DNA of 64,000 nucleotides, taken from contig OZ024747.1 of NCBI GenBank assembly GCA_964016885.1, positions 45,136,001-45,200,000 on the forward strand, read 5' to 3'. Source of the DNA: Eledone cirrhosa. Its lineage: Eukaryota. Below are positions 44,171 to 56,756 of the stretch, one piece after another (within the stretch, counting starts at the first letter, position 1; the number at the start of each line of letters is the position of its first letter). A program made the position numbers and the translations under genes. The notes under the pieces are model-generated. The model did not search any database and was not told the origin of the DNA. It was given only the letters and a program-made list of their open reading frames with translations.

Positions 44171-44262
44171 GATAGGTAAGTTATTCCGGGTTGAATCGAA
44201 GGTAACCACAGTAAGTAAGGTACTCAATACATAGCAGAGTATAAAAGTTTTAATATAGATGA

Positions 44263-44311
44263 GATTCTACAGGACTTGAACTGTTTCATTCTTGAGAAAT
44301 CATCAGGAATC
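44263..44311 (-). ncRNA. Canonical type I hammerhead (family E, left arm)
   Basis: Minus: gattc-CTGATGA-tttctcaagaat-GAAA-cag ttcaagtc ctg-TA-gaatc. Confidence 0.9.
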
Positions 44312-44326
44312 TCGAGAAATCATCGG

Positions 44327-44375
44327 GATTCCTGATGATTTCTCAAGAATGAAACAGTTCTTGTCCTGTAGAATC
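44327..44375 (+). ncRNA. Canonical type I hammerhead (family E, right arm)
   Basis: gattc-CTGATGA-tttctcaagaat-GAAA-cag ttcttgtc ctg-TA-gaatc; GUA site. Confidence 0.9.
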
Positions 44376-44849
44376 TCATCTATATTAAAACTATATATGT
44401 ATATATATATATATATATGAGAGTGTGTGTGTATCTGTCTATGTGTGTGTAAGTGTATGCATATGTATGGGTATATCATCATCATCATCGTTTAATGTCC
44501 ATTTTCCACACTAGCATGGCTGCATATGTATTTATATATAGATATAGATTAGATATAGATAACTATGTATTTAGATATAATTGTTTGTTTGACTTGACAT
44601 TCCATATAGAGTACTAAATCAGATAGTGTTTTACCAACGTACAATATATATATGGCAATATATGACACACACATTTCTGAGGAGGATGGTCGAACAGGGT
44701 TTTTGAGACTAGAAATAGGTAGTAACTTAACAACTATCATGTTAGTCTACACATCAATCTCCTTCGATTAATCAACCCTCCGAAGTGATCGAAAAACAAT
44801 GAACTAACTCTCTATCTACACCTGATTTCTGTTTGTATTGTTCAAACAC

Positions 44850-45885: not shown

Positions 45886-46162
45886 ATATATATATATATT
45901 ATATATATAAATGAAAGGTATAGAAAGTATTGTAGCAAGAAGCCAACAGTATTCCATAATATATAAGTGACTATAGCGTCAAAAGGGGAAAATAGTTAAC
46001 GTAAGATGTGGGAAAAATAATCCAAACTCAATTCAAAAAGAATCAGGATATAGATTTATCCAACAGAATTTAGTGAAATCCAGGGAAAAATCAATAGAGC
46101 CTTAACTCATGATAAAATAAAGTTTAAAATACTCATCCTTCAATTTAGGACAACTACAAATG

Positions 46163-46243
46163 CTCTGTATAGTCTTGAAAAAGACTATTTCACGAAAACT
46201 TTCAGTGGAGATGGTCACGGTTGGAATACGATCATCAGCAGAG
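46163..46243 (-). ncRNA. Type I hammerhead (family F, copy 1)
   Basis: Minus: ctctg-CTGATGA-(40 nt)-GAAA-tagtctt tttc aagacta-TA-cagag; 5-bp stem I, 7-bp stem III. Confidence 0.85.
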
Positions 46244-46788
46244 TTCAACACGATAGCCAAATTCTCACTGATTAATATGCTAAAAAGCAGGCTAGTTTAA
46301 CATCATGCGTGATTATGAAAATAAAACGCACATGTGGAAAAACAGGGCTGGTGTCGTCAGAATGAGACGAATGTTTGTTTACATGAAACAAGTCAAAAAC
46401 ATTCCGAAAAAACTCTACAATAGGGAGTTCAGCAAAAAGCAATATTATCGCTGTATTTTTTTTTTTTTTTTAAATACCGGAATTAGTCACAAATAATTTA
46501 AGCACTCTAGGAAAGAAATCTGAGTATAAATATATAAATGAAAGGTATAGAAAGTATTGTAGCAAGAAGCCAACAATATTCCATAATATATAAGTGACTA
46601 TAGTGTCAAAATGGGAAAATAGTTAACGTAAGATGTGGAAAAAATAATTCAAACTCAATTCAAAAAGAATCAGGATATAGATTTATCAACAGAATTTAGT
46701 GAAATCCAGGGAAAAATCAATAGAGCCTTAACTCATGATAAAATAAAGTTTAAAATACTCATCCTTCAATTTGGGACAACTACAAATG

Positions 46789-46869
46789 CTCTGTATAGTC
46801 TTGAAAAAGACTATTTCACGAAAACTTTCAGTGGAGATGGTCACGGTTGGAATACAATCATCAGCAGAG
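46789..46869 (-). ncRNA. Type I hammerhead (family F, copy 2)
   Basis: Same motif as 46163-46243, 626 bp away. Confidence 0.85.
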
Positions 46870-46970
46870 CTCAACACGACAGCCAAATTCTCACTGATTT
46901 ATAATATATTATATATATATATTATATTATATATATATATATTATATTATATATATATATTATATTATAT

Positions 46971-47100
46971 AACGAAGGAGTTGTGGTAAGGAACCAGATG
47001 GACTATAACGCACCAGAGTACTCAATATTTAGGGTAGTAGAGAGGATAATAGGAGAAACGGCTTGAGCTCTGCCGTCGGGGTCATACTTTCTCCTATTAT
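46971..47100. mobile_element. Mini PLE-like fold-back (family H): tail plus inverted hammerhead 3' half
   Basis: Tail homologous to 53503-53587 and 59207-59284; ataataggagaaa/tttctcctattat inverted; GAAA-cggc...gccg-TC-gggg. Confidence 0.7.
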
Positions 47101-47120
47101 ATATATATATATATATATAT

Positions 47121-49700
47121 ATTAAATAACAGATTAAAGTTAAAGTAAATAATCGCTGCTTTCACCCTTAACGGGATCTTCTGAAACTAAACAAATCAAT
47201 TTGTGAATGCAAAAGTAAATATTTTGAAAAACGTTGCAACTGAAGGAAAACAGGAAGACGATACTTTTGTTCGTGAAGACGTTCCCTGGCAATGAAGGGC
47301 AAAAAACGAAGATAATACGTCATTATTTGGATCATTGAGAACAATTACACGCAAAGACAAAACCACGTTTATGGTATAACTGAAGTCGTAGACTAAAATT
47401 CTATTTAGGAAACCGAGTTTATTGAAATCAACAATAATTAAATATATACATACACGCATCCAATGTACACACACATGCATACACGAAAACAACCGCCATG
47501 GTATGCATATACAAGCACGTACACATAAACAGGCGTACGCATACATAAACCCGCGTGACACCTGTACCCGCACACATACGAACGTATATACACCAAATAC
47601 ACATTTAAAAAATATATATATATATGTGTGGGTGTGTATATAAATGTATATAAATATACACACATAAATACGTATATAACGCACGCACACACATACCTAC
47701 AGGTAAATACACATATGTTCACTAAACATACGTCAACCAAAACACAATGTGCAAACACGCATATACTCACAACGTGCAAACACGCATATACTCACAAACA
47801 GAAAATATACATATACACATAACCATATACACATGTACCAGTATATATAATATAATATATACACCTATAACAAATACAAGCAAATATACGTACAAGAAAG
47901 TATACGCACCTTCACAAAACATACGGGTAAGGTATATTTACCTACACAAATAAGTAATGGTATAAACATAAAATATACTGAGCTACCACATCAAGACGTA
48001 AATTATCCGTGTATTGTTCGTACTATCCGTTAGGGTATAATGTGGGGCTGTAATACAGGAAAGTGTTATGCAATTTATGTTTACAAGCTGAAATTGCCTC
48101 AGATTTTTTGTTTAAGATGTGGTCATTGGCGCAGAATATTTCCAGGGCTTCAGCGGCGCAAATATCGCATGGTCTTTTATTTCCGTTATACGATCTAGCC
48201 TTAGCAAGGATCTCCCAGTGTAACCTATATTGGGTGTGGTTGTCTTTTAGACTCCAGATATAAGCTGAAAGTGACGTCATTCAACCCGATTCCTACAATT
48301 ACAGTTAGTACTAGCTACAGGGTTTCACGTGTTCCTACGGCTAGGTAGTTTAGCTAGATTTGAAGCAGTGATGTGCAAGGTTAGTAGTCGTAGAGTAAGA
48401 AATGTTAATGGTATTTCTATTAAAAATGTTATTATATTTATGTGCTGAGGGGAAATGCTTCTTAATAAAGGAGAGAAAGATATTAGCTAATGGTGTGGCC
48501 ACTTCCATATTATATGGTGGGTTATACCAGATAATGCATCGGGATCTATTTTTCCTTGGTCTATGCTCATACTTAGTATATTATTGACAAATCCACTCCA
48601 AGCAAGAGCTTCATTGTAATATGTGGAATGGTCGGTGAAAATAGGCTCGTTTGTAGATAGACGGGAAAACCTCAAAGAAACATTTCTTACCAGGTTTTTT
48701 GTTATGCTGTCAGGATGGTTAGAATGCTTACTTATATAATTAAGCATATCATTCGGCTTTCTATACGGGTAGTGCAAGCCATTCGACAAATTGAGGGTAA
48801 CGTCGAGGTAATTAACGACCGAGAGGTTTGCCTCAACCTGTATGGAGAGGTTGAAGCCTTTAAAGAAGGCTGTGAGTTCTTTTCTGAACCTGTCGCAAGC
48901 GCGTGGACTGCACTTTGTCATGGTCAAAAGACCGCCAACACGGTACAAACCACCGCCCACATTGGGGAATTCTTCCTTGATAGAGAAAAAAAGGAAAAGA
49001 TCGATAAGATCAGTAACCTCCGCCGAATCGCTGGCACCCATACTCATGCGAAATTGATAGCTTTAAGAAGTGGTAAAGTGATGGAGGAGTAGTAGATATT
49101 GATGTTGAATTGGATAAAACGGCAATGTTCCTTGTTGCATATGCTATTGAACCAATCAATCACCGCGAAAGAATTGTTCCACAGTGCAAGAGGGGCCAGG
49201 TTTCTAATTTCAGGTATAATTCTATCTAAAATCCTTTTACTAAGTCTACCTAAATCGGTGTACGTAGGGTTAATAAGCCGAAAATAGGTTTGTGATTCTT
49301 CAGGGTAAAGTGGGAAGAAATAGGGTCCAGAGGTTCAGTCCGGTCCTGGATGTTGAGTTCAGAGGTGATTTTAAATCCAGCATCGTTGATGTCATTAATG
49401 ACACTCCGATTAGTTTTCCGGTAATCCTTAGTTACAGCATTATGTAGCAGTTGATGGTAAGTACTGCGCTCCACTTGATATAGATTGCCAGTTTTGTCGG
49501 AGTGGACGTGCATGGCATTAGAATCCTAAATAGAACGAATTCTATTCTTCAGGTCCTGCTGGAAGGAATTGCTCCTATTCCGAAATTTGATACTCCGTAT
49601 GAGTTCCAAGACATCGTTTTCGAAGGGTAGCAATGCTGGGTTACTCGGAGGGTTATTATAAGTTTTAAACCCAAATTTATCCTGTATATTGTCCGCTTTT
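47121..49700 (-). mobile_element. Naiad-like Penelope-like element 1 (decayed RT + partial GIY-YIG, long 3' UTR, terminal hammerhead-like motif 47138-47188)
   Basis: FGFKTYNNPP..PFENDV, DKTGNLY, FTLKNHKP, LWNNSFAVIDWF, FIQFNI, MGASDSAEV, VNYLDVTLNL..YPYRKPN..SNHP, CNCR, TSLSAYIWSLK..CDIC..LNKKSE..CKH. Confidence 0.9.
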
Positions 49701-52040: not shown

Positions 52041-53473
52041 CTATCAATTGGTGCACCTCACTCTTTGCTAGCAATAGGAGTGCTGACACACTAAAAACTG
52101 ATTTGAAAAAATGAGATAAGCTAACCTGCAGTGATCAACTGGTGCACTTCATTCTTAGTTAGATCAGGATTACTGACACTAATAAATGTAGCTTGCTGTT
52201 CTAGCATTTGCTTTTTACAATTTACATTTGCTTTCTAACACAAAACTACCTAAAACTGCCCCTTGTTACAAAATTGTTTGTTTCAAAGTGTTTATATTTA
52301 TCTAAAAACGTTCCATCATAATTTTATTTAAGAAGCTATAAGTTATGTTCCAAACGCCAACTTAATAATGATAAATGTAAACTACATCACTAAAACCCTC
52401 CAAATGTTTTATTTTCAAAATTCCTTAAAAATTCTAGGCAGTGTTGTTCAATAGAAATATGGTAGTAAATGGGTTAAACCTTTTAATACTATGTTTCTGT
52501 TGATACAAATAGCTTATGTATTGCAATTAATTTTGAAAATAATGAATTAGGATAAACCTAGTAATATAGTTTATAGAATAACGAACAATAAAGATAAAGT
52601 GAACAAGAAAATTATATAGTGTATGTGTTTCTTTCTATTGGCAATATTGGCAACATGACCATATAACAATATTGGTTTCAACACATGATTTCACATCAAG
52701 AATCTTGCAGAACAAATACGTAAATGTAATATAGCTGAACATTTTCATTATTAATCTGATATCTGTAATATTACCTCATGAAAGGTTTTGCATAAAATAA
52801 TGATATATGATTTTAAATAAAAAATGAATATTTGAAAATAAGCATAATTTTCATAAAACCAAGGGCAATTTGGGGCTGGTTGATATCAAAAAGGTTAATC
52901 ATAGTGAAAAAGAGAGGCACCTAGGGTCTTTTTCACAATATCCAAAACTGGTGCTGGAAGAAAGGAAGGGAGTTGTCTTCAGATCACAGATAAACTTAGT
53001 CTGAATGCCTGTAATGCATCCTGCTAAAAACTCAAGGTATTATGTAGAGGGGCAAAACCAAACAACAGGTTAAGTCTACTACCTAAGAAAAGAATTAGTT
53101 CTTCCAATGAACTGCTACACAATTTCTGTTTATGATATTTTACATGAGAAGCTGTAGTCAATCTGAGTATATGACAGGAACAAAACACATAACTAAGGTG
53201 CTGTGCAGTGGGATAGAATTAAATCCTCATTGTTACAAAGAAAATTTCTAAACCACACAGCTATGATAGAAGCCTTCTCATACATGACTGTAGTAATGAT
53301 TGATTGGTAAAATTAAACATATTCATAAAATATATTTACCGCATGGTAAATAATATATTGAAGAAGCTGCAAATAGAATCTGAACCAAGCCACAGAATCA
53401 GTGGAATGAGTGCTTTCCCTTCTATTGGGTTAAAATATCTCTTAGAATCCTGTGTAAAACAGAAAATAGACAT

Positions 53474-53502
<29 letters not shown>

Positions 53503-53504
<2 letters not shown>

Positions 53505-55792
53505 ACGAAGGAAATGTGGTAAGGAACCAGGTGGACCATAACGTACCAAAGTACTCAATACTTAGGGTAGTAGAGTGGGTAATAGGTGTCGAACATCTCT
53601 TGCTTGGGTCTCGGAAGGAAAAAGAGTGCGCGTTATAGCGTACCTTAAAAGGGTTAGAGGTAGACCCGATATAAGAGCTGGTATTCGAAGCAGTTTTAAC
53701 CGTGCACCTATAGACTATGTTGGGTGTCAGGCAGTGTCCATTTAATGGGCATGCATTAGGGTAACGGGAGTTGCAGTTGATTCTGCGGTTAGTGAGAGTA
53801 GGGTAGTTTAACCTAAGCGGTTGGTCAGTGCTAGAAGGATTAGATGGCGAAGGTGTGCTACTAGAGTAATTATTGGTGTAGTGGCGTGGTGTATTTGATA
53901 GGGGTGGTGGTACCGCGGTGTGGGAGTTATACTGTCTTAGTTTATGATGGTTACTGAATGCGATGTGGCTAGCTAGGTTAGGTGTTGTGGAGAATGAGAT
54001 TTTAATGTTATTTTTATTAAAGAGTTTGTAATATCTATGGTTGGGGGGGGGTAGATAGGATAGAGAAGAAGCGTTTAGGGATATTAGTGGCGAGATTAGA
54101 TTAGAATGGGGGGTTAAGCCAGGTGTTATTTCTAGGTCTATTCCTCCTAGGGGTTCTAGTGGAGTTGGTAGGGGCCTTCCTAGGGTTATCATTACCTGGG
54201 GATTTGTTATTTGTCATCCCATTTCTCATTCCTATTCTAGGGTTGATTTTTAGTTTGCTACTTGGAGTGGGGAGCAGGCCGCTGCCACCATTAAACTTCC
54301 CTGTATAGGTGCTGTTGCTGCTAAAATTCCGGCGAATCTGGCTATATGCTAAGGTATTTCTAGTTCTAGTGTTAAGTCTATTATGGTGAATTGCTGTGTT
54401 ATGGCATTTAGGTATGTAGTAAATGGATTGTTCATAACCAGATTCAGAAAGAGCCTTATATTATGCATGGTTTATAAATATCTCCTCATTTGCTGATAGC
54501 ATGGAGATCCTATACGAGATAGATTTAATTACTGCTCTGATGACTGCCGGTGGGTGGTTAGACTGTGGGCTAATATATGTGAGTATTTCACCTGGTTTCT
54601 TGTTGAGATCCAGGGTGACGTCTAGGAAATTTACTACTTTATGGTTCGGCTCGATGGTGATAGAGAGACCGTTATTTTTAAAGAATCTATGTAATTGTTT
54701 TTTTAGCAAATCAATGCCCCGATTAGTGCAATTGTGGACTGCAAATAGGGCGTCGTCCCTGTATATTCCGCCTTACAAGGGTTGGATTTCGGCTCTAATG
54801 TTATGTAATAGGTAAATTCCAACTAAATCAGTGATTTGCGCAGAGTCACTTGAGCCCATCGTGATGTCAAAGTTGTCTGTTCTATCTTTTCTAGTCCAGA
54901 TTGCTCCGTTGAATTCAATGATGGTCTGCCTAGTCATAAGTATGATGTTAATCTCATTATTGGTTATGTCCGAGTTGGTGCTGGCTAGGGTTAATGCTTT
55001 GTTGAGCAGTTCCGGGGTTATTGAAGCATAATAGCTGTCGATGTCAAATTGGATGAACCTCATAGATTGCTTGGACCTTAGATCGGAGAACCATCTAATG
55101 ACTTGGCCGGTGTTGGACCACAACTTGTAGGTGATATCATCCCGTAGCTCAGGGATTATCCTATCAAGGATGTTCTTACTGATACGACCCAGGTCCGATG
55201 TGGTTGGGCTTATAAGTCTAATAGATGGGTTCTCTATAAAGTTTGGCTTATGATCCTTGAGAGAGAACCTTGGGGTTATTGGTACATAAAGGTGGGTAAA
55301 TCTATCCAGATGCAAGTCCTTAACCAAAGCCTCGGCTTTTCGGTTAAGTACGTTTACACTGGAGGGTATAGTTTTTTTTATAGTTTTTATTAAGTTACTT
55401 AAGAAGGAAAGAGTTGTAAGTTTCAGGAGTCATGGTGTATAGATTTTTAGTTTTGTCAGACATAACATGTAAGAGGTGGCTATCTTTAAATTATTTTATA
55501 GTTGTTGCTAATTTAGTGAGGAAATTATTCTTGTGTCCATAATGCTTTTTAAATGTAATGCTCCTGACGAAGTTGAATAGATCTTTCTCAAAAGGGTCCA
55601 GCAGGATGTTATGTGGGGGGTTCTTGCAGGTGGTAAATCCATATCTATTTGCTGTACTTCTGGCGTCAGCAGCACCCGCACGGTCAAAGTGAAAGGCTTT
55701 CCATCTTATTCTTACGCTTTGGCTTCTAACTAATTCACCAATCTCTCCTCTCCTATTTCCATCTCTCTCTTTAAGATTGGTTACTCTTGAAC

Positions 55793-56652: not shown

Positions 56653-56756
56653 TATGTATATATGTACGTATGTATATATGAATATATGTATGTATATATG
56701 TATGTATATATATATATATATATGTATAAATGAAAGTATAGAAATTATTGTAGAAG

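Follow-up and report, generated by a model that had tools for sequence, protein, structure and literature searches.

The window analysed here, a stretch of 64,000 nucleotides from Eledone cirrhosa (assembly GCA_964016885.1, contig OZ024747.1, positions 45,136,001 to 45,200,000), contains a partial head-to-tail repeat in which each copy carries a hammerhead-like motif on the minus strand. Two questions are raised by this arrangement, namely what kind of element it represents and how a non-coding unit comes to be inserted in a more-than-unit form. The window consists of AT-rich, animal-type DNA that is dense in microsatellites and is part of a 3.0-Gb assembly. The original prediction was that the locus represents a retrozyme family whose circular RNA is copied by the reverse transcriptase (RT) of a Penelope-like element.

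The insertion and its hammerhead motifs

The direct repeat consists of positions 45899–46277 and 46526–46903, which align over 378 columns with nine internal mismatches and one 1-nt indel. The period of 626/627, the repeat length of ~365 nt once the TA letters are discounted and the (TA)n on both sides of the insertion all agree with the original description. The whole insertion (45910–46898) is read on the minus strand from 46898 to 45910 and comprises 1.6 units of a ~635-nt non-coding cyclic unit, for which the numbering used below (q) runs from 46898 (q1) and places the predicted cut after q105. At the 3' side (45886–45920, minus strand) the unique sequence stops at 45910 and is followed by the (TA)n target; this is the fixed 3' end of the family and a putative priming site. 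The internal copy of this 3' anchor (46524–46545, minus strand) is a short TATATA motif that continues into the remainder of the unit. A (TA)n-type run (46899–46971) adjoins the 5'-truncated end, where a target duplication is not resolvable.

In both repeats, read on the minus strand, CUGAUGA is followed by a stem II region of 40 nt, GAAA, a stem III of 7 bp and the triplet AUA, which is an allowed hammerhead cleavage triplet. In the upstream type I hammerhead (46788–46870), a 6-bp stem I pairs 46870–46865 with 46793–46788, CUGAUGA occupies 46864–46858, the stem II region 46857–46818, GAAA 46817–46814 and stem III 46813–46795, and the predicted cut follows 46794; the core is intact and one stem II C-G is changed to U-G. 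The downstream type I hammerhead (46162–46244, minus strand; CUGAUGA at 46238–46232, predicted cut after 46168) also has an intact core, and its outermost stem I pair is broken, leaving 5 bp. A descriptor scan of the whole window returned six hammerhead-like rows, two of which are these motifs 626 nt apart, and it agrees with the originally predicted cuts at 46794/46793 and 46168/46167. The predicted cut-to-cut monomer, for which a circular form is proposed, spans 46168–46793 on the minus strand. Its length of 626 nt is correct for the window copy and does not hold as the family unit, which is about 635–638 nt; the window copy lacks 12 nt near the otherwise seamless unit junction (46273–46290, minus strand), a deletion private to it. 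The window copy is thus a dimer-type insertion with two hammerheads, and since its repeats are ~2.6% diverged from each other it is probably no longer young.

As first stated, the element encodes no RT or recognisable protein. The only protein-like frame (73 aa, plus strand, 46054–46272) has no Pfam match, and in 150 listed genome matches it is often interrupted by stops, and the frame that contains it is at most 145 aa long. A likeness by eye to a GIY-YIG C-terminus was rejected, as there is no Pfam support, the best tblastn E value against 30 GIY-YIG loci is 0.71 and the frame is broken in many copies. Two stubs were also observed in the window. One is a 38-nt stub of the family 3' end within a TA run (56717–56753). 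The other (46974–47092), of very high depth, is bounded by TA runs and adjoins the element on its upstream side; an inverted piece within it resembles a hammerhead's 3' half, with GUC as the triplet.

The hammerhead pattern has 471 exact matches in the genome versus none for the reversed control, so the motif is not a product of chance. No hammerhead in the window matches Rfam at the gathering threshold, nor is one present among 50 matches with E<=5. The core is canonical and stem II starts with U-U, as in most other hammerheads seen in this genome. Natural hammerheads with U10.1-U11.1 have been reported (Perreault 2011, PMC3088659), and the axolotl retrozyme motif HHR_Amex2, whose stem II likewise begins with U-U, is able to cleave, though weakly in monomer form (PMC7229834). 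Stem II had been described as pairing poorly by eye, which the alignment corrects for its base: the base of stem II pairs and includes one compensatory position. Among 43 distinct rows, the third pair of stem II is A-U in 19, U-A in seven, G-U in six, unpaired in seven and a gap in four, and thus covaries; 17 of the 44 aligned rows had been selected with a pattern in which part of the motif is invariant, and kinship among the rows inflates the control by shuffling. One subfamily is missing one base from each side of stem II. Stems I and III are 96–97% paired in the same 43 rows, with no double changes, and N7, which takes all four bases, is the only free core position.

Changes in the core or proximal stems make up 3 of 82 inherited versus 36 of 275 post-insertion changes (p 0.015, for counts that are not independent); counted by distinct subfamily alleles, 0 of 27 fall at constrained sites (p 0.09). 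In the genomic copies as such, core positions are not better conserved than the rest (2.5% vs 3.1%), and 45 of 55 hammerhead cores are intact across 34 multi-unit loci. The inherited changes, together with the variation at N7 and in stem II, suggest that the ribozyme is under selection in the lineages that move, and selection of this kind would point to function.

The folding predictions add a complication. In ViennaRNA, which omits pseudoknots, the cutting fold lies 10–11.5 kcal/mol above a blocked fold and stems I and II have near-zero probability. The predicted minimum-energy fold pairs q2–16 with q59–71 (46897–46883 with the stem II insert at 46840–46828, minus strand, and the same in the second copy), which disrupts stems I and II. 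Covariation in this helix is weak (one of nine pairs). As a pseudoknot of the kind described by Perreault, the helix is compatible with the active stems, and it may act either as a lock or as a brace. Folded in silico as a circle, the monomer has a predicted energy of -119.7 kcal/mol with 62% of bases paired (z -2.8 against 25 shuffles), and folded as a linear molecule it has a z of -2.0, with one of 20 shuffles as good.

The dispersed family, its ends and the search for a driver

A DNA search with the window unit returned 3,686 candidates, the best 40 of which were scored and have 85–100% identity. The 3' end followed by TA has 1,426 exact genome matches versus none for the reversed control; as exact matches, this number and the 471 hammerhead matches are lower bounds. 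By these matches, the family is present at more than 1,400 TA-repeat sites of the genome. A duplication at a single locus, one of the outcomes originally named as fatal to the retrozyme reading, is excluded by this dispersal. No publication on this family was found in the mostly open-access literature searched, and the family may already be catalogued.

The family unit is cyclic, has 33% GC and shows the same unit junction across 30 loci. On the hammerhead strand, copies end at q362 followed by (TA)n, at the point where the unit has its internal TATATA; this fixed 3' end lies 257 nt past the predicted cut, and the (TA)n is also found in loci that were not selected for TA. The 5' ends were surveyed in 90 3'-anchored loci out of 100 listed places, all on one contig (one was a repeat match in the same locus and nine were left out). 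The median length is 56 nt, with 41 of the 90 copies stopping at 54–56 nt, at another TATATA. Eighteen copies extend past the cut, five exceed one unit and three have two hammerhead cores; TA is present at the 5' junction in 66 loci. The expectation of other copies with circularly permuted ends was therefore borne out in part: there are many copies with variable 5' ends, but the ends are not freely permuted, given the constant 3' end. Such a constant end on the ribozyme strand, when combined with 5' truncation, is the product of target-primed reverse transcription, as described for Penelope-like elements (PMC8557442), and on this basis the ends are read as Penelope-type. None of the 90 loci has an adjacent inverted 5' piece, and three distant inverted pieces look like separate insertions. 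Simple patterns for Pol III A and B boxes have no match.

Candidate enzymes are plentiful in the genome. There are 10,595 GIY-YIG candidates, frames of up to 1,096 aa with RT, RT plus nuclease frames with a Neptune-type cysteine linker and an abundant family with a Hydra-type CxCX5C linker (222,039 candidates); these clade names, like Poseidon-type below, are a reading against PMC8557442 rather than the result of a tree. The layout of the autonomous Penelope-like copy L061 is the same as in the window family: a hammerhead-like motif is followed after 144 nt by a fixed end, and the upstream repeat leads into the gene by way of a short TATATA. At the 3' ends of the Neptune-like loci L061, L067 and L077 there is a minimal motif resembling a hammerhead, with a U3-A8 core variant that has been described in Schistosoma (PMC4209133). 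The Neptune-, Poseidon- and Hydra-like loci examined have no 3' end or hammerhead in common with the window family, only a loose TTTCA-(TA)n likeness. Comparison of the unit with 30 GIY-YIG, 20 long-frame and 30 Hydra-type loci, a small part of the families present, gave no partner, nor did three further hammerhead patterns or the loose contig ends. A hammerhead model run over the window and 58 loci scored only the two window copies. Of five short motifs sought in the Craig 2021 supplement, four have no match and one, an 8-mer, has four unrelated matches.

Two decayed Hydra-type Penelope-like copies lie in the window itself (47120–49062 and 53422–55429, both minus strand). The former, which shares its strand with the element, ends in (TA)n ~220 nt before it and may be a source of read-through transcription. 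Among the 222,039 candidate relatives of this copy, several have 713-aa frames.

The copies might not form a self-propagating family at all, and might instead be no more than the terminal repeats, or products of deletion, of an autonomous Penelope-like element absent from those found here. Such an origin would fit the high share of stubs of about 55 nt and the lack of a driver among the best 40–150 candidates scored per search. It is nonetheless highly improbable, since not one of 30 hammerhead-anchored loci (two are the same locus and two an apparent segmental duplicate) and not one of the 90 3'-anchored loci continues into a shared RT gene, the unit junction is identical in 30 loci and several subfamilies have multimers of their own. 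Retroelement pieces near L085, L096 and L109 are separated from the element by TA runs or other sequence. Constant attachment to an RT frame, the other outcome held at the outset to count against a retrozyme, was thus not found in the sampled loci.

Further hammerhead families were encountered in the same genome. One, at L062:5501-6419 (G000:C5, about 100,722,000) and L216-L227, has a ~467-nt unit and 1,904 candidates, with no clear sequence link to the window family. Its hammerhead starts stem II with U-U and has a 50-nt stem II, and its 3' end is fixed in (TA)n. In six of 12 loci there is either an inverted 5' piece next to the copy or an internal jump, with the end at one fixed position, as is characteristic of Penelope elements. 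Two more hammerhead-like motifs with a U-U start and 50-nt stem II regions, each of its own sequence, flank L071 and L079, and that at L071 is an inverted pair. The window also contains a palindromic pair of small hammerheads adjoining (TA)n at 44260–44390 (44268–44306 minus, 44332–44370 plus). Since L078 is flanked by a pair like it, it is likely an inverted terminal stub that belongs to another family.

Origin of the multimers

The origin of the more-than-unit form was approached through 34 distinct loci longer than 1.16 units (42 before overlaps were removed), most of which were chosen by likeness to the window copy. Repeats diverge by 3.6% within and 5.9% between loci, and the within-locus distance is smaller than that to the nearest other locus in only 12 of the 34. 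Subfamily alleles are common to both repeats in 108 cases and present in one only in 68. Alleles that are unique to a locus among these 34 occur in both repeats 21 times, in 18 loci, against 0.8 expected, and they do not lie in long, conversion-like identity tracts (mean quantile 0.54). Counting against such copying, two of four unique alleles in three-copy loci are absent from the third copy. No terminal-versus-upstream differences are inherited (73 same vs 71 opposite; among sibling loci 8 same and 8 opposite, of at most 358), a test that is weak if the source loci were young. The longest form seen has at most about 2.7 units. No more than two of the 81 internal-anchor matches are adjacent, which excludes a long satellite array within the reach of a search that used exact matches and could miss collapsed arrays. 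Since private variants are shared by both repeats, with neither positional inheritance nor an array, the multimers appear to have been regenerated from one unit many times.

These data bear directly on a DNA-level origin, in which tandem source loci spread as read-through transcripts and the repeats are built or homogenised by unequal crossing-over and gene conversion. In the trimer L004 the middle copy has no private changes and the pattern is that of a clean crossover, and L014, described below, could be the result of conversion. A process of this kind is nevertheless unlikely to account for the family: no long array is seen among the 81 internal-anchor matches, no positional differences are inherited, shared unique alleles lie outside long identity tracts, and 5' truncation would shorten the element in each generation.

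If primed at q362, a linear monomer cut at the predicted site would have just 257 nt to be copied, and copies extend past that point with neither stop nor scar. None of the 90 surveyed 5' ends falls within 5 nt of the cut, the stop rate per nt is 0.0030 before and 0.0046 after it, and no indel events are present there in 62 spanning copies, as is also true of 18 of 63 intervals compared. The template was therefore circular, uncut or precisely jumped. A circle is the simplest cause of one-unit multimers on this evidence, and a precise self-jump would be equivalent at the level of DNA.

Copying of a linear template within the same Penelope-dependent family, with no covalent circle and a hammerhead that may cut only sometimes, is the most serious competitor, and is a possibility to which we give a rather low probability. 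On a cut monomer, the RT would reach the 5' end and jump to the 3' end of the same molecule; alternatively, on an uncut 1.x-mer, it would slip back by homology. L014 (G000:C1, about 124,529,000) has three units in an A-B-A pattern, with four differences between the outer units and 15 to the middle one, and all three cores carry G5A, an inactivating change (PMC4027429); with a dead core in every unit and the A-B-A pattern, this locus is not explained by a hammerhead-cut monomer circle, and its multimerised units fit a linear template. L004 looks like a later duplication or jump, and L175 contains an internal jump. That the cutting fold is not the predicted minimum also favours a linear template, as does the account in PMC8557442 of partial tandems in Naiad and in most Chlamys elements, which have no canonical hammerhead. 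Against it, jumping from end to end would be expected to scar the cut site or to cause stops there, and neither is seen. A jump by homology from the 5' end of a cut molecule would copy twice from one unit no more than the sequence upstream of the cut, yet 16 of the 21 shared unique alleles lie downstream.

Taken together, the window element is a non-coding hammerhead repeat that is likely moved by the RT and GIY-YIG nuclease of a Penelope-like element, with a head-to-tail form that likely comes from repeated copying of a unit-length, probably circular RNA. In the mechanism we infer, a two-hammerhead locus would be transcribed on the hammerhead strand, and both hammerheads would cut to release the monomer, which would be closed by a host ligase, as shown for other animal retrozymes. 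The nuclease would then nick a (TA)n target, whose free end would pair with the internal UAUAUA 257 nt past the cut and prime cDNA synthesis. The RT would run back through the sealed junction and usually drop off early (median 56 nt, often at the second TATATA). About 3 of 90 insertions receive two hammerheads and could seed the next round. The cutting, the monomer RNA, the circle and the driving RT are all steps deduced from genomic DNA.

A more far-reaching proposal may be offered tentatively, and we think it rather doubtful as a whole. Hammerheads with a U-U start, a 40–50-nt stem II insert and a stable stem III would constitute a class of animal hammerheads missed by current models, with the helix between 5' arm and insert serving as a switch that braces cleavage of the nascent RNA or locks the finished circle. 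Several unrelated circles of this kind would parasitise TA-targeting Penelope enzymes in one genome, and their insertions would be a fossil record proving rolling-circle reverse transcription primed inside circular RNA.

Comparison with known systems

The idea that a circle is copied into a more-than-unit product is not new. Hammerhead cleavage, ligation and more-than-unit copying were proposed for Penelope-like elements by Cervera 2014 (PMC4209133). For retrozymes of coral, mussel and axolotl, circular RNAs were then demonstrated by Cervera and de la Pena 2020 (PMC7229834), who also found that RtcB ligates far better than self-ligation. Retrozymes have since been tied to the terminal repeats of Penelope-like elements by Li, Clavereau and Pollet 2026 (bioRxiv 2026.07.22.740005), who report in vitro cleavage for one of nine predicted retrozyme dimers of Xenopus. 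The original suggestion of rolling reverse transcription by a Penelope-like RT is accordingly upheld as regards a non-autonomous multi-copy family with Penelope-type ends and one-unit multimers, and not as regards the novelty of circle-and-roll copying (PMC4209133, PMC7229834). For both Penelope-like elements and retrozymes, the model has gone without a mechanistic test since 2014, and the role of the hammerhead has been called unclear (Craig 2021). The window family offers a short substrate that encodes no protein and has a putative priming site at a defined place, 257 nt into the monomer; the genome also supplies numerous dated copies and candidate enzymes, so that the choice between a circle and a linear jump is directly testable. 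Because long-stem-II hammerheads escape Rfam, such families may be undercounted.

Animal non-LTR retrozymes (PMC7229834; bioRxiv 2026.07.22.740005) are similar to the window family in having one type I hammerhead per head-to-tail unit, no protein and low GC, and in sharing a genome with Penelope-like elements; U-U at the base of helix II is common to HHR_Amex2 and the window family. The monomer, originally thought unusually large, is longer than the 150–450 bp repeats of the 2020 paper (PMC7229834), but falls within the range of 51–972 bp reported more recently (bioRxiv 2026.07.22.740005). Most metazoan hammerheads have a stem II of 4 bp and a stem III of 1–2 bp (PMC4209133), in contrast to the 40-nt stem II region and 7-bp stem III described here. 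The window family also differs from animal retrozymes in its dispersed 5'-truncated insertions of at most about 2.7 units with a 3' end fixed in (TA)n.

Penelope-like elements with an endonuclease (Neptune, Hydra, Naiad; PMC8557442, PMC4209133) share with the window family the partial tandem, the heavy 5' truncation, the (TA)n targets and a hammerhead upstream of the 3' end, and some Naiads have two hammerhead core halves 35–50 nt apart (PMC8557442, PMC4209133). Unlike them, the window family lacks an RT or nuclease frame, its 90 surveyed loci show no inverted 5' piece next to the insertion, and no link by sequence to an autonomous family was found. Non-autonomous Chlamys elements such as MRC1 are also non-coding and Penelope-type, with pseudo-LTRs and head-to-tail insertions, but are algal, mostly without canonical hammerheads by the account in PMC8557442, and share their 3' ends with known autonomous partners.

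Plant LTR retrozymes (PMC7229834) resemble the window family in being non-coding, in having two hammerheads that flank a 600–800-nt monomer and in a ribozyme predicted to be blocked by complementary sequence. They differ in having type III hammerheads in true LTRs with PBS, PPT and 4-bp duplications and in being moved by Gypsy elements, whereas the window family has type I hammerheads (stem I open), variable 5' ends, TA targets and no fixed LTR pair. Judged by its sequence, the window element is a non-LTR retrozyme with Penelope-type ends. Both this kind of element and the circle-and-roll model have already been described, and the form of the hammerhead together with the copy-level evidence for one-unit multimers makes the family a useful variant rather than a new kind.
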